Part shown: in pieces, positions 1,948-32,155 of the stretch
Position numbering within the stretch: position 1 is the stretch's first letter
How the letters are laid out: every line of letters starts with the position of its first letter
Sequence record: PQ850611.1
Origin: Escherichia phage JohannBuxtorf_Bas84
Reading direction: 5' to 3' (one strand)
DNA: 44,189 nucleotides
Notes under the pieces: model-generated
What the model was told of the DNA's origin: nothing
What the model saw: only the letters and a program-made list of their open reading frames with translations
Database searches by the model: none
Translations under genes and position numbers: made by a program

Positions 1948-3468
1948 ATGACCGTTAACGTTGACAACCAGCACCCGCTCTATGCGCGCATTGCGCCAGA
2001 GTGGAAGATGATCCGCGATTGTGTAGCAGGGGAGCGCGCCGTGAAGGCGTGCGGCCCTTTGTACCTGCCTCATCCCGCCAGTGGCGACAATACTGACCCG
2101 AAAGCACGGGCGCGGTATAAGGCGTACAAGCAACGCGCGGTATTCCTGAACGCCACCGCCCGCACACTAAACGCGCTGTTAGGCGTCGCCTTTGCAAAAC
2201 CTGTAAGTCTGGACCTTTCCGGGGCGATGGCTGACCTGATTGACGACGTAGACGGCAGCGGTATGCCATTGCCGCAACTTCTGCGCGGTGCTATGTCGGA
2301 AGTTCTGCAATCGGGACGCGCGGGCTTTATGGTGGATTACGACCGCCAGGCTAACTTTGATGAACTGGGTAACGTAGTGCCACAGACAGCCGCCGAGATG
2401 GCGGCACACCGACCGCTTATCCGCCTGTATACGGCAGAGCAGATCATCAACTGGCGGCAGACCCACGGCGTCGATACGCTAATTGTGCTGAAGGAAACGG
2501 ACGAAATCAGCACCGAAGACCCGGACGATTTCGCAAACCACGAAGTAACAATCTGGACCGAGCTTCGCATGATTGACGGCAAGGCACACGCCCGCCGCTG
2601 GTTTTACAACGCGGACACGTCCGAAGTGAAGATGGACTTGCCGCGAGGCTTCACCAGAACCGATCTTGTGCCGTTGGTGGATGCTTCCGGTAATGCGCTT
2701 ACGCAACTACCGTTTTGCTGGTGTGGCGCGGTGGACAACAACGCAACGCCTGACGCCGCTCCGCTGGCGGATATCGCATCCATCAACATTAAGCACTACA
2801 ACGCCGAAGCGGACGTCGCCGAGATTGCGCACATCGTGGGGCAACCTACCCTGGTGGCAACTGGCTTGACTCAATCATGGGCTGACAAGAACCTGAAGGG
2901 CGGCATCGCGCTCGGAGCGACTAAGGGCGTTATTCTGGGTCAGAACATGGACGCTAAACTGATTCAGGCCGAGGAGCGCAACTTGTCTGTTGCGCTGTGT
3001 GAGCGACGCGAATTGCAAATGGCTAAACTAGGCGCGGCCCTGGTTGAGAAGGGGACTGCACCTAAGACGGCAACGGAAGCGGCCTACGATGCGCAGACTG
3101 ATAACAGTATCCTGTCGCTTATTGCTGGTAACGTTGAGAAGGCTTTCAACCGCGCGCTGCAAATCGTCCAACTCTTCACCGGTGACACCGCCGACCAGCG
3201 TGTGACGCTGAATAAGTTCTACACCGAGATCACGGTTGATGCGCAGCTTATGACCGCGATGATGTCGGGTGTGCAGACTGGCACGGTCCGCCTGGCTGAT
3301 TTCATCAAGTGGATGATGGCGCAGGGCGTCATCGACGACTCGCAAACCGTCGAGCAGGTGGAAGACGAATTGCGAAATCAGAATCCATTGCCTCAAATGT
3401 CCCCCGATGCGGTAGAATCTACCGAAGAAGACCCGGACAAGGTAGCGGACAATGGCGAAGACAATTAA
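1948..3468 (+). CDS. portal protein
   Basis: 506 aa ORF directly after large terminase with RBS AGGAA; acidic C-terminus; synteny. Confidence 0.75.
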   Translation: MTVNVDNQHPLYARIAPEWKMIRDCVAGERAVKACGPLYLPHPASGDNTDPKARARYKAYKQRAVFLNATARTLNALLGVAFAKPVSLDLSGAMADLIDDVDGSGMPLPQLLRGAMSEVLQSGRAGFMVDYDRQANFDELGNVVPQTAAEMAAHRPLIRLYTAEQIINWRQTHGVDTLIVLKETDEISTEDPDDFANHEVTIWTELRMIDGKAHARRWFYNADTSEVKMDLPRGFTRTDLVPLVDASGNALTQLPFCWCGAVDNNATPDAAPLADIASINIKHYNAEADVAEIAHIVGQPTLVATGLTQSWADKNLKGGIALGATKGVILGQNMDAKLIQAEERNLSVALCERRELQMAKLGAALVEKGTAPKTATEAAYDAQTDNSILSLIAGNVEKAFNRALQIVQLFTGDTADQRVTLNKFYTEITVDAQLMTAMMSGVQTGTVRLADFIKWMMAQGVIDDSQTVEQVEDELRNQNPLPQMSPDAVESTEEDPDKVADNGEDN

Positions 3469-4989: not shown

Positions 4990-5001
4990 TGGCCCCCTTT
5001 T
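4979..5001. terminator. bidirectional intrinsic terminator between convergent genes
   Basis: perfect GC stem gggggcc/ggccccc with 5-nt loop, followed by TTTT on plus strand and A/T-rich run on minus strand; sits between stop of 4750-4989 and stop of 5004-5768. Confidence 0.7.
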
Positions 5002-5003
5002 CG

Positions 5004-5768
5004 TTAGCGCGGAATACCGCAAATCTCGTTTAACGTCTTCACGTCCAGCGCCACCGCCGTGGACTTCGGCTTGTCCGGGTAAGGAATGAACTGTTCCACT
5101 TCAGGCCACGCCTTGATCAGCTTCTTATCTGTATTGTGCATATCCAGCACGCCGGTAACGGTTAGTTTGAACGCGTCATACTTCGCGCGCAATTCGCGGC
5201 GGGCCTTGTCGTTACGGTCCAGGCGCTTGCAGAAATCATGGTCCGCCGGGTAGTCTGCGCGATCGCGAGGGAGATATATCGGCAGCGCTTTCCCATCCTC
5301 GTCCACTTCACATACTGAGGCCAGCATAACTTCCTCATACCCTGGGACTATATCGCCGAGGTCAGGCGCGAGCTTGTTCATGTATTTGATGTCCCAGTAT
5401 CCGCGACGTACGCGGTTTTGTCGCCCGTCGCCGCTCAATGACAAGGTGCGAACATTGCCGCCTGCGTTTATTTCGAAAGAGGCGTCGTAAACGCTGCCAA
5501 TACCTTTCGGGCGGTCGGTGTTATAGCTATACGTCGCCTTGTTGGTGTAGACGCTGACGCCGTACATCTGCGACTGGTCGCCGCGGATTAACTGGATATG
5601 CTCGCGTAGCGCGGCGAATGTGCGAATGCCTTCCGGCATACAGTCCAGCGTAATGGCGTACGCCAGGTCGCGCGAGTCCATCATGATGGATTTTGCTTCG
5701 GTCGCGATTTCATGGTCGCGCAGGATGTTAGCCAGAATCTGGTTTTTAATGTCTTTCGTCAGTCTCAT
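5004..5768 (-). CDS. hypothetical protein (minus-strand insert in head module)
   Basis: 254 aa from internal ATG (MRLTKDIK...) with RBS GAGGA 8 nt upstream; opposite orientation to flanking structural genes; own upstream motif pair and downstream terminator. Confidence 0.6.
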   Translation of the reverse strand: MRLTKDIKNQILANILRDHEIATEAKSIMMDSRDLAYAITLDCMPEGIRTFAALREHIQLIRGDQSQMYGVSVYTNKATYSYNTDRPKGIGSVYDASFEINAGGNVRTLSLSGDGRQNRVRRGYWDIKYMNKLAPDLGDIVPGYEEVMLASVCEVDEDGKALPIYLPRDRADYPADHDFCKRLDRNDKARRELRAKYDAFKLTVTGVLDMHNTDKKLIKAWPEVEQFIPYPDKPKSTAVALDVKTLNEICGIPR

Positions 5769-5790
5769 TTGTGTGTCCTCGTTGTTGGTG

Positions 5791-5814
5791 TGCAACCAAT
5801 ATAGTGCAACCAAT
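5791..5814. promoter_or_regulatory. tandem TGCAACCAAT motif pair in divergent intergenic region
   Basis: TGCAACCAAT at 5791-5800 and 5805-5814 (14-bp period) between divergent genes 5004-5768 (-) and 5918-6619 (+). Confidence 0.45.
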
Positions 5815-9905: not shown

Positions 9906-10631
9906 ATGGGTTATCAACTTCCTAACGGGTCCAGCGTCCAGATTGGGTCCGTACTGGGCAGCGGCATCGCTGTTACGGCAGCTACCAACGCCGCCGCGTC
10001 TATCTCTGATCTTACGCAAGGTTGCGTTATCACCTGCGCGGCTTCTCATGGCCTGCAAGTCGGCGATGTGGTAATGTTCACTAAAACTCCGTGGGTCCGT
10101 GCGCTGAACCGAGCGTTCATCGTGGGTAAAGTGGCTACCAACGACGTTACGCTGGCGCGCTTCGACACCTCGGACGTGACCAAATATCCTACTGGCGCGT
10201 TTGGGGTGGGCACTCCTGGCGAAGTGGTGAAAGTGTCTAGCTTTATCGACTTCCCGTACATTACCAACGTTGCCGTGTCGGGTGGCGACCAGCAGACGAC
10301 TACCTTCCAGCCGTTGCAGGTGAACACCGCAATCAGTCTGAACACCACGAAAAACCCGTTGGTTCAGACTTACACCTTCACCCACGACGAAGAAGACCCG
10401 ATCCGCCCAATCCTGGAAGACCTGGACGACACACAGAAAACCACTGTGATTAAGTTCACTAACCCGGCAGCGGCAAGCGGCAAAGGTGAGATTCGTATTT
10501 ACCCGGCTAAGGTATCTTTCCAGAAGATTCCGTCCGCTGAAGTAAACAACGTGGAAACAGTACAATCCACTCTGACCATGCAGTCTGATATGGTTATCTA
10601 CCGTAAGGATCTTGTCGAGGCATTGTCTTGA
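9906..10631 (+). CDS. major tail protein
   Basis: 241 aa, RBS AGGAG; position upstream of chaperone/tape-measure; followed by strong terminator. Confidence 0.6.
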   Translation: MGYQLPNGSSVQIGSVLGSGIAVTAATNAAASISDLTQGCVITCAASHGLQVGDVVMFTKTPWVRALNRAFIVGKVATNDVTLARFDTSDVTKYPTGAFGVGTPGEVVKVSSFIDFPYITNVAVSGGDQQTTTFQPLQVNTAISLNTTKNPLVQTYTFTHDEEDPIRPILEDLDDTQKTTVIKFTNPAAASGKGEIRIYPAKVSFQKIPSAEVNNVETVQSTLTMQSDMVIYRKDLVEALS

Positions 10632-10660
10632 TTTGGTCGCTTAAATAGCGAGTGATAATA

Positions 10661-10685
10661 TGGGGCCAGCACGGCCCCTTTTTTA
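10661..10685 (+). terminator. intrinsic terminator after major tail gene
   Basis: stem ggggcc/ggcccc with 5-nt loop followed by T6. Confidence 0.75.
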
Positions 10686-10700
10686 TTGGAGAATACTACA

Positions 10701-11063
10701 ATGGCTAAAGCACCACTCTTTACACTTGACCCTAAGCCAACCTTTAAGCTGCCGATTGAGATCCCGCGCCCTGGTGAGAACGAACCAGGCAAGATGACTT
10801 TTACCGTCCGCCACCGCCCGATCGACGAATTTTCGCAAACCATGCAGGACACCGAACGGAAGCTGTCGGAATATGACGACAATGACCCGGACGGCTTTAA
10901 CGTTATGGTCGAGGCCATCATGCACGTCGCAGAAGGCTGGAATCTGCCGGACGAATTTAACGCGGAGAACGTCCGCCGCCTGGTGGTCAACTATCCACGC
11001 GCGTTCGGTGTGTTCCACACGTCGTACTATCTCGAACTGATGGGATTGCGTGAAAAAAACTAA
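10701..11063 (+). CDS. tail assembly chaperone (gpG-like)
   Basis: 120 aa from ATG with RBS GGAG; acidic small protein directly upstream of tape measure; ends just after slippery heptamer A_AAA_AAC. Confidence 0.6.
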   Translation: MAKAPLFTLDPKPTFKLPIEIPRPGENEPGKMTFTVRHRPIDEFSQTMQDTERKLSEYDDNDPDGFNVMVEAIMHVAEGWNLPDEFNAENVRRLVVNYPRAFGVFHTSYYLELMGLREKN

Positions 11064-11422
11064 TTGAGGCGGCGCGACGCTTTTATGGCCCGCCGCCACC
11101 CTCCGAAGATTTAGCCGCGAGTTTATGGGGTGCGGCCCCTGAAGATGTTTGTCCGCCTGTTGCGCTATGGCCCGACAACGCGAAGGTAGTCGCAGTCTTC
11201 ACAGATTGCTCCACGCAATGGCGCACCGGATTTGGTGGCGCATACGGCATCGACTACGGCGTGTTGGAGTGGTTATTTAAGATGCACGGTATCGAAAACG
11301 AGCAGCGCGCGTTTAAAGATATCAAGCTAACCCCCCCCCCCCAAAACTGCATATCTAATCACTTTCATTGCATAAACTCAAAGCGGGACAGGCGGGACGT
11401 CCCGTTTTGCCCCACCCCGTAA
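10701..11422 (+). CDS. tail assembly chaperone -1 frameshift product (gpGT-like); 3' end uncertain
   Basis: slippery site A AAA AAC at 11054-11060; the -1 frame is open with no Met-initiated ORF and encodes ...WPDNAKVVAVFTDCSTQWRTGFGGAYGIDYGVLEWLFKMHGIENEQRAFKDIKLT; reading frame then crosses a C12 homopolymer so the true C-terminus depends on tract length. Confidence 0.45.
11331..11342. repeat. poly-C homopolymer (12 nt)
   Basis: c x12 at 11331-11342 at the 3' end of the frameshift extension and immediately upstream of the CGGGACA repeat element. Confidence 0.9.
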
Positions 11423-11620
11423 ATGTGCATACCTATGCGGATTTCGTGCATAAACCAAACGGGACAAAAAGCGGGACAAACAAGGGGCGGGACAAAGCGG
11501 GACAGCACCCCGTCCCGCCAGTGCTGCCGCGGGTTTTCAGCCGATCGGGACAGCGGGACAGCACCCCAGTCTTTCAGACTAGACGGGGGTCAATGGCCCC
11601 CCTCGTCTGAGACTGAATAA
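11364..11620. repeat. structured non-coding element copy A: CGGGACA direct-repeat array plus 60-bp hairpin module
   Basis: 8 direct CGGGACA cores (11383, 11392, 11460, 11471, 11487, 11497, 11545, 11553), inverted GTCCCG at 11399 and 11512 forming dyads, then gcaccccagtctttcagactagacgggggtcaatggcccccctcgtctgagactgaataa (11561-11620) shared with copy B. Confidence 0.85.
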
Positions 11621-11683
11621 GGTTTGTTTGAAATTCGCTGATACAATGACAGTCGGCAACTGCATAAAAAAGGGGACTGCATA

Positions 11684-14326
11684 ATGGCAGATCAAGCAGC
11701 AGGCATCACGCTGAAGGCTGATGTCGCACAAATCAGAACGGCAAATACTGTGCTGGACTCCTTCGCACAGAAATCCGAGAACACAGAAAACAAGGTTAAG
11801 AAATTAAACGACACCCTCGGCAAATCCAAAAAGGTGACGAGTGACGCCGCGGGCGGAATGGAGAAGCTGGCGACTGAATCGCAGCGCGCTGCCGATGGCA
11901 TGACGAAACAGGAGCGACTTGCCAACAGGTTAGGCATGTCGACCAAAAACCTGGGCTTTGCCTCGCGTAACGCCGCATTCCAGTTACAGGATATCGCGGT
12001 TACGCTTGAGATGGGTATGCCGGTGCACCGCGTTATGCTTCAGCAGCTACCACAGCTAACCGGCGCATTTGGCGGACTGGGTAACACGCTGCGATATGTT
12101 GCAGGCTTCCTCGGCCCAGTAGGGATCGGCCTTGCCGCCGTAACGGCAACGTTAGGCGTGGGCGTGGCAATTACGTCCCGCGCAGAGAACCAGGTCGCCG
12201 CGCTTAACAAGACGCTGGCGCTTTCCGGCAACATTTCCGGCCTGACGGCAAACCAGATCCTGGTGCTATCCGAGAACGCCGAGCGCATGGGCGGGTCGTT
12301 CCGCAAGACGCGTGACACAATCCAGGCGCTGGCGGCGGCGGGTGTGAAAGCGGGAGGTGACTTCGGCGCACTGGCGAAGGTAGTGAATGACTTCGCGAAG
12401 GTGTCCAGCCAGCCGATCGAGGATGTGGTCGCGGCGGTGGCGAAGCTATCTACCGACCCGGTAGGTGGCTTGCGAGCATTGGCTGATAAGTATCACGTCG
12501 TAAACGAAGCGCAGATCCAGCAGGTGCAGTCACTAGTGACGGCTGGTCGCGAAACCGAAGCGGTGGCGCTGGCTAACAAAACAGCCGCAGCGTCGTTTAC
12601 CACTATGACCAATGAGATCAAGTCCAACATGGGTACGCTTGAGCGGTCGATGAACGTCGTTATATCGGCAGCTAAATCTATGTGGGATGCCATCCTGGAT
12701 GTCGGGCGCGCGCAGTCCTCGAATGAGTCAGAGATGAAAGCGCGTGAATCATTGCAGCGACTGACCACGGCTTACTATGCCGAGATGAAAGCGGTAAACG
12801 CTGCCGGTGGGGTGATGACCGAAGCGCAGAAAGCGCGTATTAACATGCTTTACAGCGAACTGGTAGCCCAGGAAAAAGTAGTGGCGTCGCTCACCCTGCG
12901 CAACCGTGCCGAGCGGGACAACGCCCGCGCCGCGGAAGAAGCAGCAAAGGCGAACGAGGAGGCCAACCGCACCGCCCGCGACCGCGCCGCGTTTGAGAAG
13001 GAGTACGCAACCAACGCGAAGAGGCGCGCCGACGAGATCGCCCGCCTCAATTTGCTGAATAAGCGCGGCGTGATTGACGAGAAAGAGCTTGCCGAGGCGG
13101 TGAAGCAGGTCAACGAGCGTTACAAAGACCCCGCCCCGAAGAAGGCCGCCGCTGTTCGCGTCGATGCAGGGATGAAAATGCTGGAAGTCGCGCGAAGCGA
13201 ACTGGCACAGCTTCGGGAATCAGGCAAGCAGATCGAAGCCAACGCATCGACGCAGACCCGCACGCAACGCGCTCAAGCGGCCCTAAACAAGCTGATCGCG
13301 GATAATGAGCAGTTAATCGCCGCAAGCAAAGAAAGAGCACTAACGGCAGCGGAAAAGCAGCAGATTGCCGAATTCGGACGCGTGAAGGAAGTACGCGAGC
13401 AGATCGTCGAAGAAGCCAAATTGCTGGACGCGAAAGAGAAGCAGGTCAAGGCGCACGCGCAGATCGACGCCTTCGTTAAGAACCAGAACGCCGAGCTAAA
13501 AGCCACCGCGGTGGGCTATGCGCTTTCCACTCGCGAAGCGGCTAACCTGCGCGAAGAATTGCAGCTAATTGACCGCCTTAAGCGGGTGGGCGCTAGCGAT
13601 ACCGATATTGATCTGGCGGTGTCTAAGCTGCGCGAAGTGCAGGAAGCACAGACCGGTGCTAACGCCTCGCTATGGGATGGCTTCAGCCGCGGGCTTAAGG
13701 ATAGCGTGGATGAAATGGGTAACGGCTACACGCAGATGACGTCACTCACAAAATTCACGTTCGGCGCTATGCAGGACACGATGAACGAGTTTTTCGAGAC
13801 TGGCAAGCTGAACGCAAAAGATATGGTTAAGTCCATTCTGAGCGAATTAATAAAGCTGGCTACCTCGCAGGCGTTCAAGTCCATCGTTAGCGCTTTCGGT
13901 GGCGACGGCGGCAAAAACGGATTGTTCGGCGCTATCTTCTCCGGCCTCACTAAGAATGCGGACGGCGGAGCGTACGCAGGGGGCAATCTCGCGGCCTATT
14001 CGGGGCAGGTGGTAAGCCAGCCAACCTTTTTCAGTTATGGCGTCCAGGCGTTCGCTAAGGGCGCAGGATTGATGGGTGAGGCCGGACCCGAAGCCATCAT
14101 GCCACTGAAGCGCGGCCCGGACGGCAAACTTGGAGTCGCCGCTGCCGGTGTAGGCGGGGGGATGATTGTAACGACCTACGTTAACATGGGGACCGGTAAG
14201 ACGGATACCAGTGTTAGCGGACCAGACCCGCGCACCGCGCAGGCGTTCGGGAAGCAAATCACCGAGTCGGTCAAGGCCGAGATCGTGAAGGCGACGAAAC
14301 CGGGTGGTGTACTTTACAAACGATGA
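11684..14326 (+). CDS. tail tape measure protein
   Basis: 880 aa, RBS AGGGGA; long Ala/Gln/Lys/Glu-rich helical sequence with Gly-rich C-terminal part; position after chaperone pair. Confidence 0.85.
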   Translation: MADQAAGITLKADVAQIRTANTVLDSFAQKSENTENKVKKLNDTLGKSKKVTSDAAGGMEKLATESQRAADGMTKQERLANRLGMSTKNLGFASRNAAFQLQDIAVTLEMGMPVHRVMLQQLPQLTGAFGGLGNTLRYVAGFLGPVGIGLAAVTATLGVGVAITSRAENQVAALNKTLALSGNISGLTANQILVLSENAERMGGSFRKTRDTIQALAAAGVKAGGDFGALAKVVNDFAKVSSQPIEDVVAAVAKLSTDPVGGLRALADKYHVVNEAQIQQVQSLVTAGRETEAVALANKTAAASFTTMTNEIKSNMGTLERSMNVVISAAKSMWDAILDVGRAQSSNESEMKARESLQRLTTAYYAEMKAVNAAGGVMTEAQKARINMLYSELVAQEKVVASLTLRNRAERDNARAAEEAAKANEEANRTARDRAAFEKEYATNAKRRADEIARLNLLNKRGVIDEKELAEAVKQVNERYKDPAPKKAAAVRVDAGMKMLEVARSELAQLRESGKQIEANASTQTRTQRAQAALNKLIADNEQLIAASKERALTAAEKQQIAEFGRVKEVREQIVEEAKLLDAKEKQVKAHAQIDAFVKNQNAELKATAVGYALSTREAANLREELQLIDRLKRVGASDTDIDLAVSKLREVQEAQTGANASLWDGFSRGLKDSVDEMGNGYTQMTSLTKFTFGAMQDTMNEFFETGKLNAKDMVKSILSELIKLATSQAFKSIVSAFGGDGGKNGLFGAIFSGLTKNADGGAYAGGNLAAYSGQVVSQPTFFSYGVQAFAKGAGLMGEAGPEAIMPLKRGPDGKLGVAAAGVGGGMIVTTYVNMGTGKTDTSVSGPDPRTAQAFGKQITESVKAEIVKATKPGGVLYKR

Positions 14327-26848: not shown

Positions 26849-27484
26849 TTTAAATTTTCCTCGTTAACCGCTATCGCGAAGCCGCGCGGAGTGAGCGACC
26901 GGATTAATTTTGTGCGGGCTGATTTGCCTCCGAGGCGACTATACTGCTTCGAGTACCCTTTTTCAACGAAAACGGGTTTCTTCTCTGGCATACGGAAGCC
27001 GTTGCCGGTCCATAAGCAGGTCAGCTTCGGATATGAATCGCGGGCGTTGATGTATTCCGGGAAGAGCGGGTGTACGTCATCCTCCGGCAGATATCCCCCA
27101 TACTCCCACGGGTCGAATGAGTGATCCGGTTTGCGCCACTGGGTGGATAGCACACTGCGCGGATTCTCAATCATATATGGCACTTCGAAGAAGTCACCCA
27201 GGTAAGCGGCGATCTTCGCGGTGCGCACCGCTCACTGCCAGATCCGTGCACGGAGGAAACGCATAGATGATATCTGGCGTACCGAAATCACCATTCATCG
27301 CACGGTCTACAAAGTCCAGATCGATAAACTCATTGCGATAGCGGATTCCGCGACCATAAATCCGGTAGTCAAGGTATGACCCGTGATCAGCTTCGGAGTA
27401 GTTGAAGCAATAACACTTATGCCCCATCTCGGCAGCACGCTCAATCATCAAGCCGCTGCCGTCAAACAATGACCAGATTATCAT
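26845..27484 (-). pseudogene. C5-cytosine DNA methyltransferase-like gene split by a frame disruption
   Basis: ORF 27194-27484 carries motif I-like LFDGSG and motif IV-like FPPCTDLAVSGA; ORF 26845-27228 (GTG start, other frame) carries motif VI-like ENP and C-terminal TPRGFAIAV; frames differ by +1 within 27197-27231. Confidence 0.5.
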
Positions 27485-29671: not shown

Positions 29672-29859
29672 TTAGTTTGCAATTCCACGTTACGCAGACG
29701 AAGGTCTACCGGTATATCCGATCGCCCGGTTAGCGCCAGCGCCAGGTTTTCAGGCGTGACAAGTGCCGTAATGGTCTTGCCACGTTCCAGTCTAATGACG
29801 ATTCGAATCTCGTCATTGTCCGCCGCGCCAGCGCGCATAATGCTCATTTCTGCTTTCAT
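29668..29859 (-). CDS. small hypothetical protein
   Basis: 63 aa from ATG with RBS AGGAAG, starting 2 nt after the polymerase stop. Confidence 0.4.
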   Translation of the reverse strand: MKAEMSIMRAGAADNDEIRIVIRLERGKTITALVTPENLALALTGRSDIPVDLRLRNVELQTK

Positions 29860-29863
29860 AATC

Positions 29864-32155
29864 TTACTTCCTATATCTATACATAATGTCGCCTTCGGCG
29901 GCAAGTGGGAAGCCTTTCGCCCAAATCGGCAGGTCACACATCAGCGCGCAAAGCTCCTCGGTGGTGTAGTCGTCGGTGTCCGGCACTTCGGTGATCAATT
30001 CATCGTGTACTGACAGGACGATTTCATAGCCCGCAGCTTCAACGCCAGGCATGGACCATGCGAGAATATCGCGGCACAACGCCTGTACGATGTTCTCCGT
30101 CAGTTTGCCGCCGTAGGTGTACTGGAATCCCCACTGACGAGTCGTCTGATTCTCGCCCTGGTATTTGATGCGGGTACTGGTGCGCTTCTTGCCGGTGTCC
30201 TCGTCAATCTCTGTCGTAACAGACAGCGCGATGCCGGGGTAGCTCATGATGCGCCCTGACGGCAACTCAATTTTCAACCACCACCCCGCGGCGTTCGGGT
30301 CGTCGCGCTCCTCGTCGAAGGTTGGGTCGTGCTTCGCCTTCGTGCGCACAATCTTGAGCGCTTTTCTACCGTCCGGGCGAACGTTCGCGCCAGCCCAGTA
30401 TGCTTTGCCCGGATTGCGGATTGCACACAACACCGCGTCCTCAAGCTCGGCCCAAAAGGCTACCGTCTTCGGGTGAGCCTCACGCCACATACGTTTGATT
30501 GCGTCACAAGTCAGCCATACGTTTTTCGGCAGTATGTATGTTGGGCGCTCGTCTTTCTTGCCTGGCTTCGGTGGGCGTTTCGCTTCGTTAATGCGGGCGT
30601 ACTCATAGCCGCGTTTCGCCGCCGCCCAAATGTGATCAGGGAACGTGCCCTTCATGACGTCAGCCATAGTGTAAAGGTCGAGGCCCAGGTTTTTAGCGAA
30701 CTGCAAGAACGCAGCCACGCCGCCGCCATAGCCAAGTCCCAACTCACACGCCTTACCAATCTGGCGTAGGTCTTTGCGGTTGGCTTTAATGTATTCCGGG
30801 TCAAGGCCGAACATCTTACCGGCAGTTTCACAATAAATATCGCGACCGGCCCTAAACACCATTAGCGCGGTTTTCTCACCAGCGATCCAGGCGAGGCCAC
30901 GCCCTTCCACGTTAGAGTAGTCCGCTACGACAAACTTCTTGCCCTTAGCCGGGATAATGCACCCGCGAACGGTCGAGGCTGTTAGCTTAGATATGTCATA
31001 CGCCCAGTGCGCGGTCCCGCGTAACAGGGAATTGATGCCGTTGGTGAGCATGTGCGACCGGACCCAAAAAGCAACGTCGCTCTCGCCTTCGCGGCGCTTA
31101 ATCTTCCCTTCGTGATCGTCGCTATACTCGCCGCGTGCCAGGTTTTGAGGCTGGAAGCCTTTACCAGCCCAGCGCAGCGTGCGCTTTGCGCCACCATACT
31201 GAAGACACCCACGGCGGCGACCATCTGCGGATAAGCCATTAACGAGCGGATTGTATTTAGTCGATGCCGTTGATGACGCGCCGAGGCGCATTTCGATCAG
31301 CGCTTTGCCTTCGTCGGGGAAGTCCGGGTCTTCAAGAAGGTCGTTAAGCGTGGATTTTTGCGCGTTGTGGATCGTGAATGCTGGCGCAATATCACGCAGG
31401 ATTGGCAGGAAGTCATGGCCGGTCAGCTTACCGCCAAATCGCTCCCAGGCTTCTTCCTTCAATTCTTCCTTATGCGCCTGCACCGCTTTGATCGCGGCGT
31501 TCGCCAGATCAACGTCAACGTAGAAGCCGCGGTCGTTAATCAACTGGTCGATGAGCAGGATTTCATCTTCCTTCGGAGTATTACCCCAGTCCGGTATGCG
31601 CCAGTAGACTTCACGCATGGCAACAATATCCAGCGCGGCATAGCGCAAGAATTTGGCCCATTCTTCAGGGTGAGTCTCGCGCGTGTAGCGGCGTATTTTG
31701 TAGGTCTTAGGGGTAGGCTTACAGAATCGTTTGATCAGCGCCTTGCCTGCCTTATCCTTCGCGTGCTCTGCGTCAACGCCCAGCACCTGACACTGCATAT
31801 CGAGGCTACCAGGCAGCGCGTGGCGAAAGGCCATAATCATTGTGTCTTCGATCTGGCTTACCGGCAGGTCAATACCCCACTTCTCGCGGATAACCAAGCG
31901 GTCAAACTGGAGGCCGTTAGCCATCACTATTTTTGCTTTCTTGCGGGATACATGGCGGAGCGCCTTGCGCAGTTCACGCGGCATTGTGGGGGATTCAGTG
32001 CAATCCCATGTCTGCACGCGGCCTTCGTCGATGGCGTAGGTGCAAATCATAATCTCGGTGGTTGGGTGCTCCGCGTAGGCGTACGCCCCAACTTTCTTCA
32101 GGTCCACCCCGCTAAATGTCTCGGTATCGAGAAACAGGCGTTCGAAGTCTTTCAT
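29864..32155 (-). CDS. DNA polymerase, family A, with 3'-5' exonuclease domain
   Basis: 763 aa; exo motif LFLDTETFS near N-terminus; C-terminal polymerase motif VLSVHDELITEV; ATGA coupling with upstream small ORF. Confidence 0.9.
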   Translation of the reverse strand: MKDFERLFLDTETFSGVDLKKVGAYAYAEHPTTEIMICTYAIDEGRVQTWDCTESPTMPRELRKALRHVSRKKAKIVMANGLQFDRLVIREKWGIDLPVSQIEDTMIMAFRHALPGSLDMQCQVLGVDAEHAKDKAGKALIKRFCKPTPKTYKIRRYTRETHPEEWAKFLRYAALDIVAMREVYWRIPDWGNTPKEDEILLIDQLINDRGFYVDVDLANAAIKAVQAHKEELKEEAWERFGGKLTGHDFLPILRDIAPAFTIHNAQKSTLNDLLEDPDFPDEGKALIEMRLGASSTASTKYNPLVNGLSADGRRRGCLQYGGAKRTLRWAGKGFQPQNLARGEYSDDHEGKIKRREGESDVAFWVRSHMLTNGINSLLRGTAHWAYDISKLTASTVRGCIIPAKGKKFVVADYSNVEGRGLAWIAGEKTALMVFRAGRDIYCETAGKMFGLDPEYIKANRKDLRQIGKACELGLGYGGGVAAFLQFAKNLGLDLYTMADVMKGTFPDHIWAAAKRGYEYARINEAKRPPKPGKKDERPTYILPKNVWLTCDAIKRMWREAHPKTVAFWAELEDAVLCAIRNPGKAYWAGANVRPDGRKALKIVRTKAKHDPTFDEERDDPNAAGWWLKIELPSGRIMSYPGIALSVTTEIDEDTGKKRTSTRIKYQGENQTTRQWGFQYTYGGKLTENIVQALCRDILAWSMPGVEAAGYEIVLSVHDELITEVPDTDDYTTEELCALMCDLPIWAKGFPLAAEGDIMYRYRK

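Follow-up and report, generated by a model that had tools for sequence, protein, structure and literature searches.

A predicted G/GT-type -1 frameshift signal in the tail assembly chaperone gene of a Dhillonvirus, and a C12 lesion in its extension frame

The tail assembly chaperone gene of Escherichia phage JohannBuxtorf_Bas84 (PQ850611.1) stops immediately behind an A_AAA_AAC heptamer, and the -1 frame that opens at this point runs on into a tract of 12 consecutive C residues. This raises the questions of whether the two frames are joined by programmed frameshifting, and of whether the C tract has any part in that process. We addressed both in the window, by which we mean the whole 44,189-nt stretch of DNA that was analysed. 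Our reading, to which we assign a probability of roughly 80%, is that the locus carries an ordinary Dhillonvirus recoding signal of the G/GT type and that the C12 tract is a lesion confined to this sequence, likeliest a scar.

The window is a near-complete Dhillonvirus genome of an HK578/SO-1-like coliphage. Megablast searches with positions 10600-11700 and 1-24000 matched ~158 phage records, nearly all of them Escherichia phages of the genus Dhillonvirus. The matched Dhillonviruses, which include HK578, SO-1, SECphi18 and BASEL phages, are 90-97% identical, with TH13 being the best match over the whole region (94.5%). The gene order at the locus is major tail protein (9906-10631, 97.5% identical to the SO-1 major tail protein), chaperone, extension and tape measure protein (11684-14326, 97.4% identical to the SO-1 tape measure protein). 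The flanks in relatives are Pfam Phage_tail_3 upstream and TMP_2 downstream.

The chaperone gene, which is the G equivalent, occupies 10701-11063 on the plus strand, with an ATG at 10701 that is preceded by a GGAG Shine-Dalgarno sequence on the same strand (10689-10692). Its 120-residue zero-frame product is 100% identical to SO-1 gp15 and matches Pfam Phage_TAC_4 over the entire profile (positions 1-124 of 124), with an E value of 1.4e-23 and a score of 83.9 bits where the cut-off is 21.1. The protein terminates in ...LREKN, and its codons GAA (11052-11054), AAA (11055-11057) and AAC (11058-11060) place the slippery heptamer A_AAA_AAC at 11054-11060 (plus strand) in the correct X_XXY_YYZ phase, with the AAA lysine codon in the P site and the AAC asparagine codon in the A site. 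The zero-frame TAA at 11061-11063 (plus strand) abuts the heptamer with no spacer. This arrangement, in which the chaperone frame ends at 11063 just after the heptamer, had been described in a first-pass annotation of the DNA and is seen directly in the window. In the -1 frame there is a TGA directly upstream of the heptamer at 11051-11053 (plus strand; the translation reads ...DGIA-stop-KKLIEA...), the frame opens at 11054, and the next stop is a TAA at 11420-11422. The TGA at 11051-11053 and the TAA at 11061-11063 thus confine any productive change of frame to positions 11054-11063. The first-pass annotation was also right that this open frame has no ATG start of its own, as the first ATG, GTG or TTG is a GTG at 11261 that lies 69 codons in, past the conserved WPDN...TQWRTG core.

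Conservation of the signal was followed through three sets of relatives. The first set of 21 loci consists of SO-1, SECphi18 and 19 IMG/VR loci retrieved by searching with the chaperone protein, of which four are at 42-56% identity; a second set has six intermediate loci with chaperones that are 57-65% identical; and the third adds 80 IMG/VR loci that were retrieved with the extension from among at least 585 relatives. AAAAAAC with an adjoining TAA or TGA occurs in every one of the ~110 related loci, the T1-like phages TLS and swan01 included. The frame encoding the extension, which belongs to Pfam DUF1799, is always the -1 frame in the 21, 6 and 80 loci, with an extension of 100-106 aa. Among the 80 further IMG/VR loci the stop after the heptamer is TGA in 58 and TAA in 22, and the heptamer itself does not vary across these 80 loci, 77 unique 660-nt segments or 43 unique 57-nt segments (T1-like members included). 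Synonymous change would be possible at 11054, 11057 and 11060, yet all three positions are invariant, and the C at 11060 never changes even though a T there would be silent in both frames. Conservation of the heptamer in these alignments is far beyond chance, and the comparison makes it very probable that the site is one of -1 frameshifting. In addition, a tblastn search with the fusion matched 1140 phage records, including Drexlerviridae (T1-like) and Klebsiella phages, and in 757 of these the matches span 80% or more of the query, for the most part in two pieces that lie in two frames. The proposal of the first-pass annotation that this tail assembly chaperone undergoes a G/GT-type -1 frameshift therefore has strong comparative support from signal, domains and synteny, and we infer from the aligned loci that frameshifting takes place in the Dhillonvirus group.

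The same loci bear on two other accounts of how the extension could be made. Transcriptional slippage, in which RNA polymerase would add one A within the A7 run at 11053-11059 and so give rise to the fusion, has in its favour that at least 90% of relatives have the A7 run and that poly-A runs are known slippage sites (reviewed in PMC5009743). We nevertheless consider it improbable. In one relative (L028) the codon preceding the heptamer is TCA rather than GAA, which cuts the run to A6, but the exact phased heptamer is kept (TC A AAA AAC), and the T1-like members likewise have only A6 (GTA AAA AAC). Slippage by the polymerase would not need the invariant C at 11060, and a stop codon together with a hairpin spaced by 7 nt is typical of a ribosomal site. 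The other account, an independent DUF1799 gene that starts from the ATT at 11063 or from an internal GTG or ATG, possibly by termination-reinitiation, is very improbable: although GenBank annotates a separate CDS (HK578 gp16, and SO-1 gp16 from ATT) and gene callers have placed starts inside the frame in some relatives, the codon behind the stop varies (ATT, ATC, ATA, AAG, AAA), there is no Shine-Dalgarno sequence, and fused family profiles as well as a joined CDS (tfmS) exist. An independent start in homologues, which the first-pass annotation had named as the finding that would speak against frameshifting, was looked for; across the 80 loci the first canonical start is reached only 12-74 codons into the conserved domain, at a position that is not conserved, and a GTG nine nt downstream is present in some relatives only. 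The outcome of this check does not count against frameshifting.

The conserved part of the extension, the T equivalent, comprises 90 codons (LIEAARR...KDIKL) at 11060-11329 on the plus strand, with C 11060 being read twice. It matches DUF1799 with an E value of 9.6e-18, though only at profile positions 1-62 of 80, whereas the extensions of relatives match at 1-80 of 80; thus the assignment of the gene to the DUF1799 family stands, and the window copy is truncated. Among 22 unique sequences the variable columns of the extension at the three codon positions number 46/33/80, with 80 of the 90 third positions varying. Mean pairwise differences by codon position are 14.4/8.2/29.4 for the extension read in the -1 frame and 13.9/8.4/37.4 for the chaperone read in its own frame. 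Judged by these substitution patterns, coding selection acts on the -1 frame extension. Furthermore, the phrog_17368 profile (213 positions) is matched by the chaperone at 1-107 and by the extension at 150-212, and since it covers both parts it models a fused protein.

The description of this segment as gpT-like in the first-pass annotation is borne out by position and presumed role, but not by sequence. The family is DUF1799, and an hhalign profile comparison of the extension with lambda gpT gave a probability of 0.9%, with no similarity detected. The extension had no match at E 0.1 to any other Pfam family, the lambda-type families included, and a profile search with it against PDB sequences returned no meaningful match. 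A single-sequence AlphaFold model of HK578 gp16 has a mean pLDDT of 52, which is too poor for a fold search; modelling hints that the DUF1799 domain may be all-helical, with its last helix lying across the break point in the window.

Two features next to the heptamer are candidates for stimulating slippage. One is the abutting stop codon, which we take to be part of the signal because it is invariant. The other is a stem-loop, GGCGGCG...CGCCGCC, at 11068-11097 on the plus strand, which starts 7 nt after the heptamer and has a minimum free energy of -17.1 kcal/mol (z -2.1). The intermediate relatives have a hairpin in the same register at -20 to -28 kcal/mol (z about -3), TLS has one in exactly this register at -15.5 kcal/mol (z -4.2), and swan01 has a same-register hairpin as well. 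Taken over 35 distinct sequences, 89.8% of the cells for the seven consensus pairs are paired, as compared with 71% in shuffles and 28-45% with slid partners. Five of the seven pairs change on both sides, a covariation that is confounded in that the arms encode conserved Ala/Arg and Pro-Pro residues and the changes are largely at the level of clades, with few independent events. One clade has a small hairpin only, and 32 of 77 loci reach the top 5% of background windows. Taken together, the adjacent stop and the stem-loop at 11068-11097 probably help slippage. An Rfam scan of 10600-11750 gave no match near threshold.

In the mechanism that we propose, most ribosomes translating the chaperone gene (10701-11063) would terminate at the TAA at 11061-11063, and a minority would slip back by one nucleotide on A_AAA_AAC, where tRNA-Lys occupies the P site and tRNA-Asn the A site. 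The slipped ribosomes would then read on in the -1 frame and produce a chaperone-DUF1799 fusion. By analogy with gpG/gpGT of lambda, this fusion would connect the tape measure protein with the major tail protein while the tail is assembled, with the chaperone part binding the tape measure protein and the extension recruiting the major tail protein. The efficiency of the frameshift, its stimulators and the role of the fusion are all three predicted.

The closest known system is that of phage TLS (NC_009540.1), where tfmS is the fusion annotated as a joined CDS and TfmA/TfmS are the tape-measure chaperones of T1-like phages. Like Bas84, TLS combines Phage_TAC_4 with DUF1799, has an A_AAA_AAC that abuts a TAA (in TLS within GTA AAA AAC TAA), shifts in the -1 direction, has a hairpin 7 nt downstream and has the pair located between the major tail and tape measure genes. 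The two differ in that the TLS fusion has only ~36-38% protein identity and belongs to a different virus family (Drexlerviridae), and in that a repeat region of ~400 nt separates the chaperone from the tape measure gene in Dhillonviruses. A conserved frameshift is mentioned in a T1-like genome note (PMC4319613), and a search of the literature on a Dhillonvirus or HK578 frameshift returned nothing relevant, its one match being about Ksap1 escape mutants. A similar system, gp12/gp13 of Acinetobacter phage Loki, is itself a prediction.

The likeness to lambda lies in gene position, in a -1 shift near the end of the chaperone gene and in a C-terminal extension that has no start of its own. The lambda gpG/gpGT pair was reportedly studied by Levin, Hendrix and Casjens in 1993 and by Xu, Hendrix and Duda in 2004. 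Lambda slips on G_GGA_AAG several codons before the G stop, whereas the A_AAA_AAC of Bas84 abuts its stop. Lambda gpT is 144 aa, as compared with about 104 aa for the Dhillonvirus extension, and the Pfam families differ; the extension is thus an analogue of gpT by position only. In lambda the G part binds the tape measure protein, the T part binds the major tail protein, and G and GT are made at a ratio of 30:1 (PMC5009743). A fusion that is made at a low ratio, is needed for tail assembly and is absent from virions is known for lambda and a few other phages (PMC5009743, PMC5313236). In regards to the heptamer, A_AAA_AAC is much less shifty than A_AAA_AAG in E. coli (PMC5009743), and in insA-insB' of IS1 it is a proven -1 site of low efficiency in E. 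coli that gives a small amount of fusion (PMC4066793). IS1 differs from Bas84 in that the product is a transposase rather than a phage chaperone and in that no stimulator is established for it. The low efficiency of A_AAA_AAC in E. coli fits a low ratio of fusion to chaperone such as the 30:1 of lambda.

The C12 tract, at 11331-11342 on the plus strand, stands where relatives carry 79-90 nt and is the only run of C or G of at least 7 in the 44,189 nt. In SO-1, SECphi18, CS16 and welsh, ...GATATCAAGCTAA is followed by TGGAACGAAT.GCGCTTGATGA.ATGG.GCAGCAGAACC.CGCATAA, which encodes MERIALDEMAQQNPA and the stop, and the palindromic GGGAC/GTCCC repeats come after this natural stop. Where SO-1 has 90 nt (positions 2232-2321 of locus L001), the window has the 12 C instead, which leaves it 78 nt shorter on balance. 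The 90 nt comprise the last 15 codons of the domain, the natural stop and a 34-nt perfect palindrome (GCGGGACAAAACGGGAC followed by GTCCCGTTTTGTCCCGC), part of which is annotated as a terminator in the HK578 record. Included among the lost residues are the M, E, A and L of an ME..AL motif that is invariant in all other sequences down to 36% identity; the extensions of relatives end in ...ME(R)xAL... just before the palindrome. The window copy has neither a complete DUF1799 domain nor the ME..AL helix, and its extension of ~121 aa (100-106 aa in relatives) ends in an unrelated tail, TPPPQNCISNHFHCINSKRDRRDVPFCPTP, which is encoded in the -1 frame at 11330-11422 (plus strand) by DNA that is intergenic repeat in relatives. 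An alignment of this tail with the conserved end ...MERIALDEMAQQNPA of relatives showed no similarity between them.

The first-pass annotation had described the extension as running into the C tract with a stop that is set by tract length. The tract and the arithmetic are correct, with the extension frame ending at 11422 for 12 C, at 11375 for 11 C and at 11358 for 13 C, but this dependence is not a feature of the system, as the tract is absent from relatives. Specifically, none of 21 related loci has a run of C or G of at least 8, every match among those listed for a junction query in 128 phage records splits in two at the tract, and the exact C12 junction is absent from IMG/VR and GTDB genomes. 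A single metagenome contig with the exact junction has unrelated flanks and was set aside as a chance match. Tracts of 8-16 C all give tails that are unrelated to the conserved end, the three phases yielding 10-31 residues, and no tract length restores the conserved C-terminus because its sequence is deleted. The C12 tract is thus a one-off lesion of this sequence and not part of the frameshift mechanism.

As for its origin, we think that the tract is probably an artefact of assembly or sequencing. The tract borders what remains of region A (11343-11683, plus strand), an interval of direct and inverted GCGGGACA repeats between the chaperone and tape measure genes whose first 34-nt palindrome is missing here, and a second, related copy, region B, lies at about 39075-39230 after the primase-helicase gene. 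Region A is where two independent Dhillonvirus assemblies stop, namely an IMG/VR contig (44,204 bp; L014, position 2786) and Maverick (42,624 bp; L120, position 809), which suggests that assemblies frequently break at this repeat. Published Dhillonvirus genomes come out of assembly as circles and are rotated to the start of the small terminase gene (PMC9022532), so that a former contig end can become internal; the window begins at this gene as well. If a contig ended within region A and was circularised and rotated in this way, an internal scar of this kind would be left. The case for a scar is circumstantial: it is favoured because region A is palindromic and duplicated and because other assemblies end there. 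Counting against an artefact, no particular assembler behaviour is known to us that would produce a run of exactly 12 C, and the remainder of the genome looks clean, as 53 of 54 matched SO-1 proteins align to the window in a single frame in a comparison that left out the intron-containing DNA polymerase gene (gp38/gp39).

A real strain-specific lesion is less likely than an assembly or sequencing scar. It would mean that a deletion-plus-insertion produced both the C12 tract and the 78-nt net loss, and that the strain survives with a GT protein carrying a foreign 31-residue tail. The in-frame integrity of the remaining genome speaks for it, as does the presence of another genuine-looking deletion in the methyltransferase gene, and region A is of variable length in relatives, which have 68-79 nt more there than the window. 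Perfect palindromes are also deletion-prone in E. coli. Against it, the lost M, E, A and L are otherwise invariant, the junction is found in no relative examined, and there is no flanking microhomology at the C12 junction, whereas the methyltransferase deletion has a 9-nt repeat; moreover, 12 untemplated C's would have to be added, only 7-8 of the 12 matching the sequence of relatives. On balance we regard this explanation as unlikely. A repeat collapse between two tandem ~78-nt units of region A was considered and rejected, given break points that are out of register and the 12 untemplated C's. The contingency-locus idea, that a phase-variable homopolymer tunes the GT C-terminus by shifting the stop among the three positions given above, is hardly credible, as no length yields a functional end rather than a junk tail and the tract is in none of the relatives examined, so that no length polymorphism is seen; a functional switch of any kind at the C12 tract is scarcely more believable. 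It is decidedly doubtful that a viable natural Dhillonvirus has lost the last 15 T-like codons, the stop and the 34-nt palindrome. If the tract were genuine, these elements would be dispensable, and their place would have been taken by a hypermutable homopolymer on which the length of the GT tail depends. For Bas84 the practical message is a quality flag: the sequence at 11330-11342 calls for a renewed check ahead of any deposition or use of the gene product.

Regions A and B, so named in the SO-1 record, are non-coding and contain GCGGGACA arrays, TGCATAAA motifs and a shared block that ends in the hairpin GACGGGGGTCAATGGCCCCCCTCGTC. They look like arrays of binding sites for a phage regulator, or like origin or promoter elements.

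The seven Dhillonvirus records that we inspected do not annotate the fusion. In these records the downstream frame is left out, broken up into short 'hypothetical proteins' or listed with an ATT start, and 'tail length tape measure protein' is a frequent label for the chaperone. GenBank/RefSeq lists the DUF1799 frame as a separate ATT-start gene that overlaps the chaperone stop in SO-1 (1964-2278 of locus L001) and HK578 (2796-3110 of locus L030). These annotations look like systematic mis-annotations of a frameshifted fusion. The predicted Bas84 frameshift is an unannotated case of the well-known G/GT-type kind, for which TLS already has the fusion annotated. For the family, represented by the 1140 phage records matched, a simple annotation rule follows, which is to join the frames at the A_AAA_AAC that always abuts a stop. 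With an invariant stop and a stem-loop at a constant distance of 7 nt, the loci also provide a natural test set for the tuning of a weak heptamer in E. coli.

Several other observations were made in the window. The sole other frame break found in the genome by the SO-1 protein comparison is a 56-nt deletion relative to SO-1 at 27223-27231, in a cytosine-C5 DNA methyltransferase gene (the SO-1 gp32 homologue). It has a 9-nt direct repeat, GCGCACCGC, at the junction and splits the gene into two frames; this looks like a genuine microhomology-mediated deletion that has inactivated the gene. SO-1 gp7 (RusA-like), gp37 (an HNH endonuclease) and gp49 have no match in the window, the areas concerned being 5000-5800 and about 29700-32150, and these are ordinary mosaic differences among Dhillonviruses. 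An A10 homopolymer at 36142-36151 is intergenic, flanked by the match to SO-1 gp46 on the minus strand and that to gp47 on the plus strand. Finally, a scan of the chaperone region for sigma-70 promoters and terminators was uninformative except for a strong intrinsic terminator after the major tail gene, at 10662-10686, where GGGGCC-AGCAC-GGCCCC is followed by TTTTTTATT. This terminator lies between the major tail protein and chaperone genes, is present in SO-1 too, and probably keeps expression of the chaperone and of the genes downstream of it below that of the tail tube protein.
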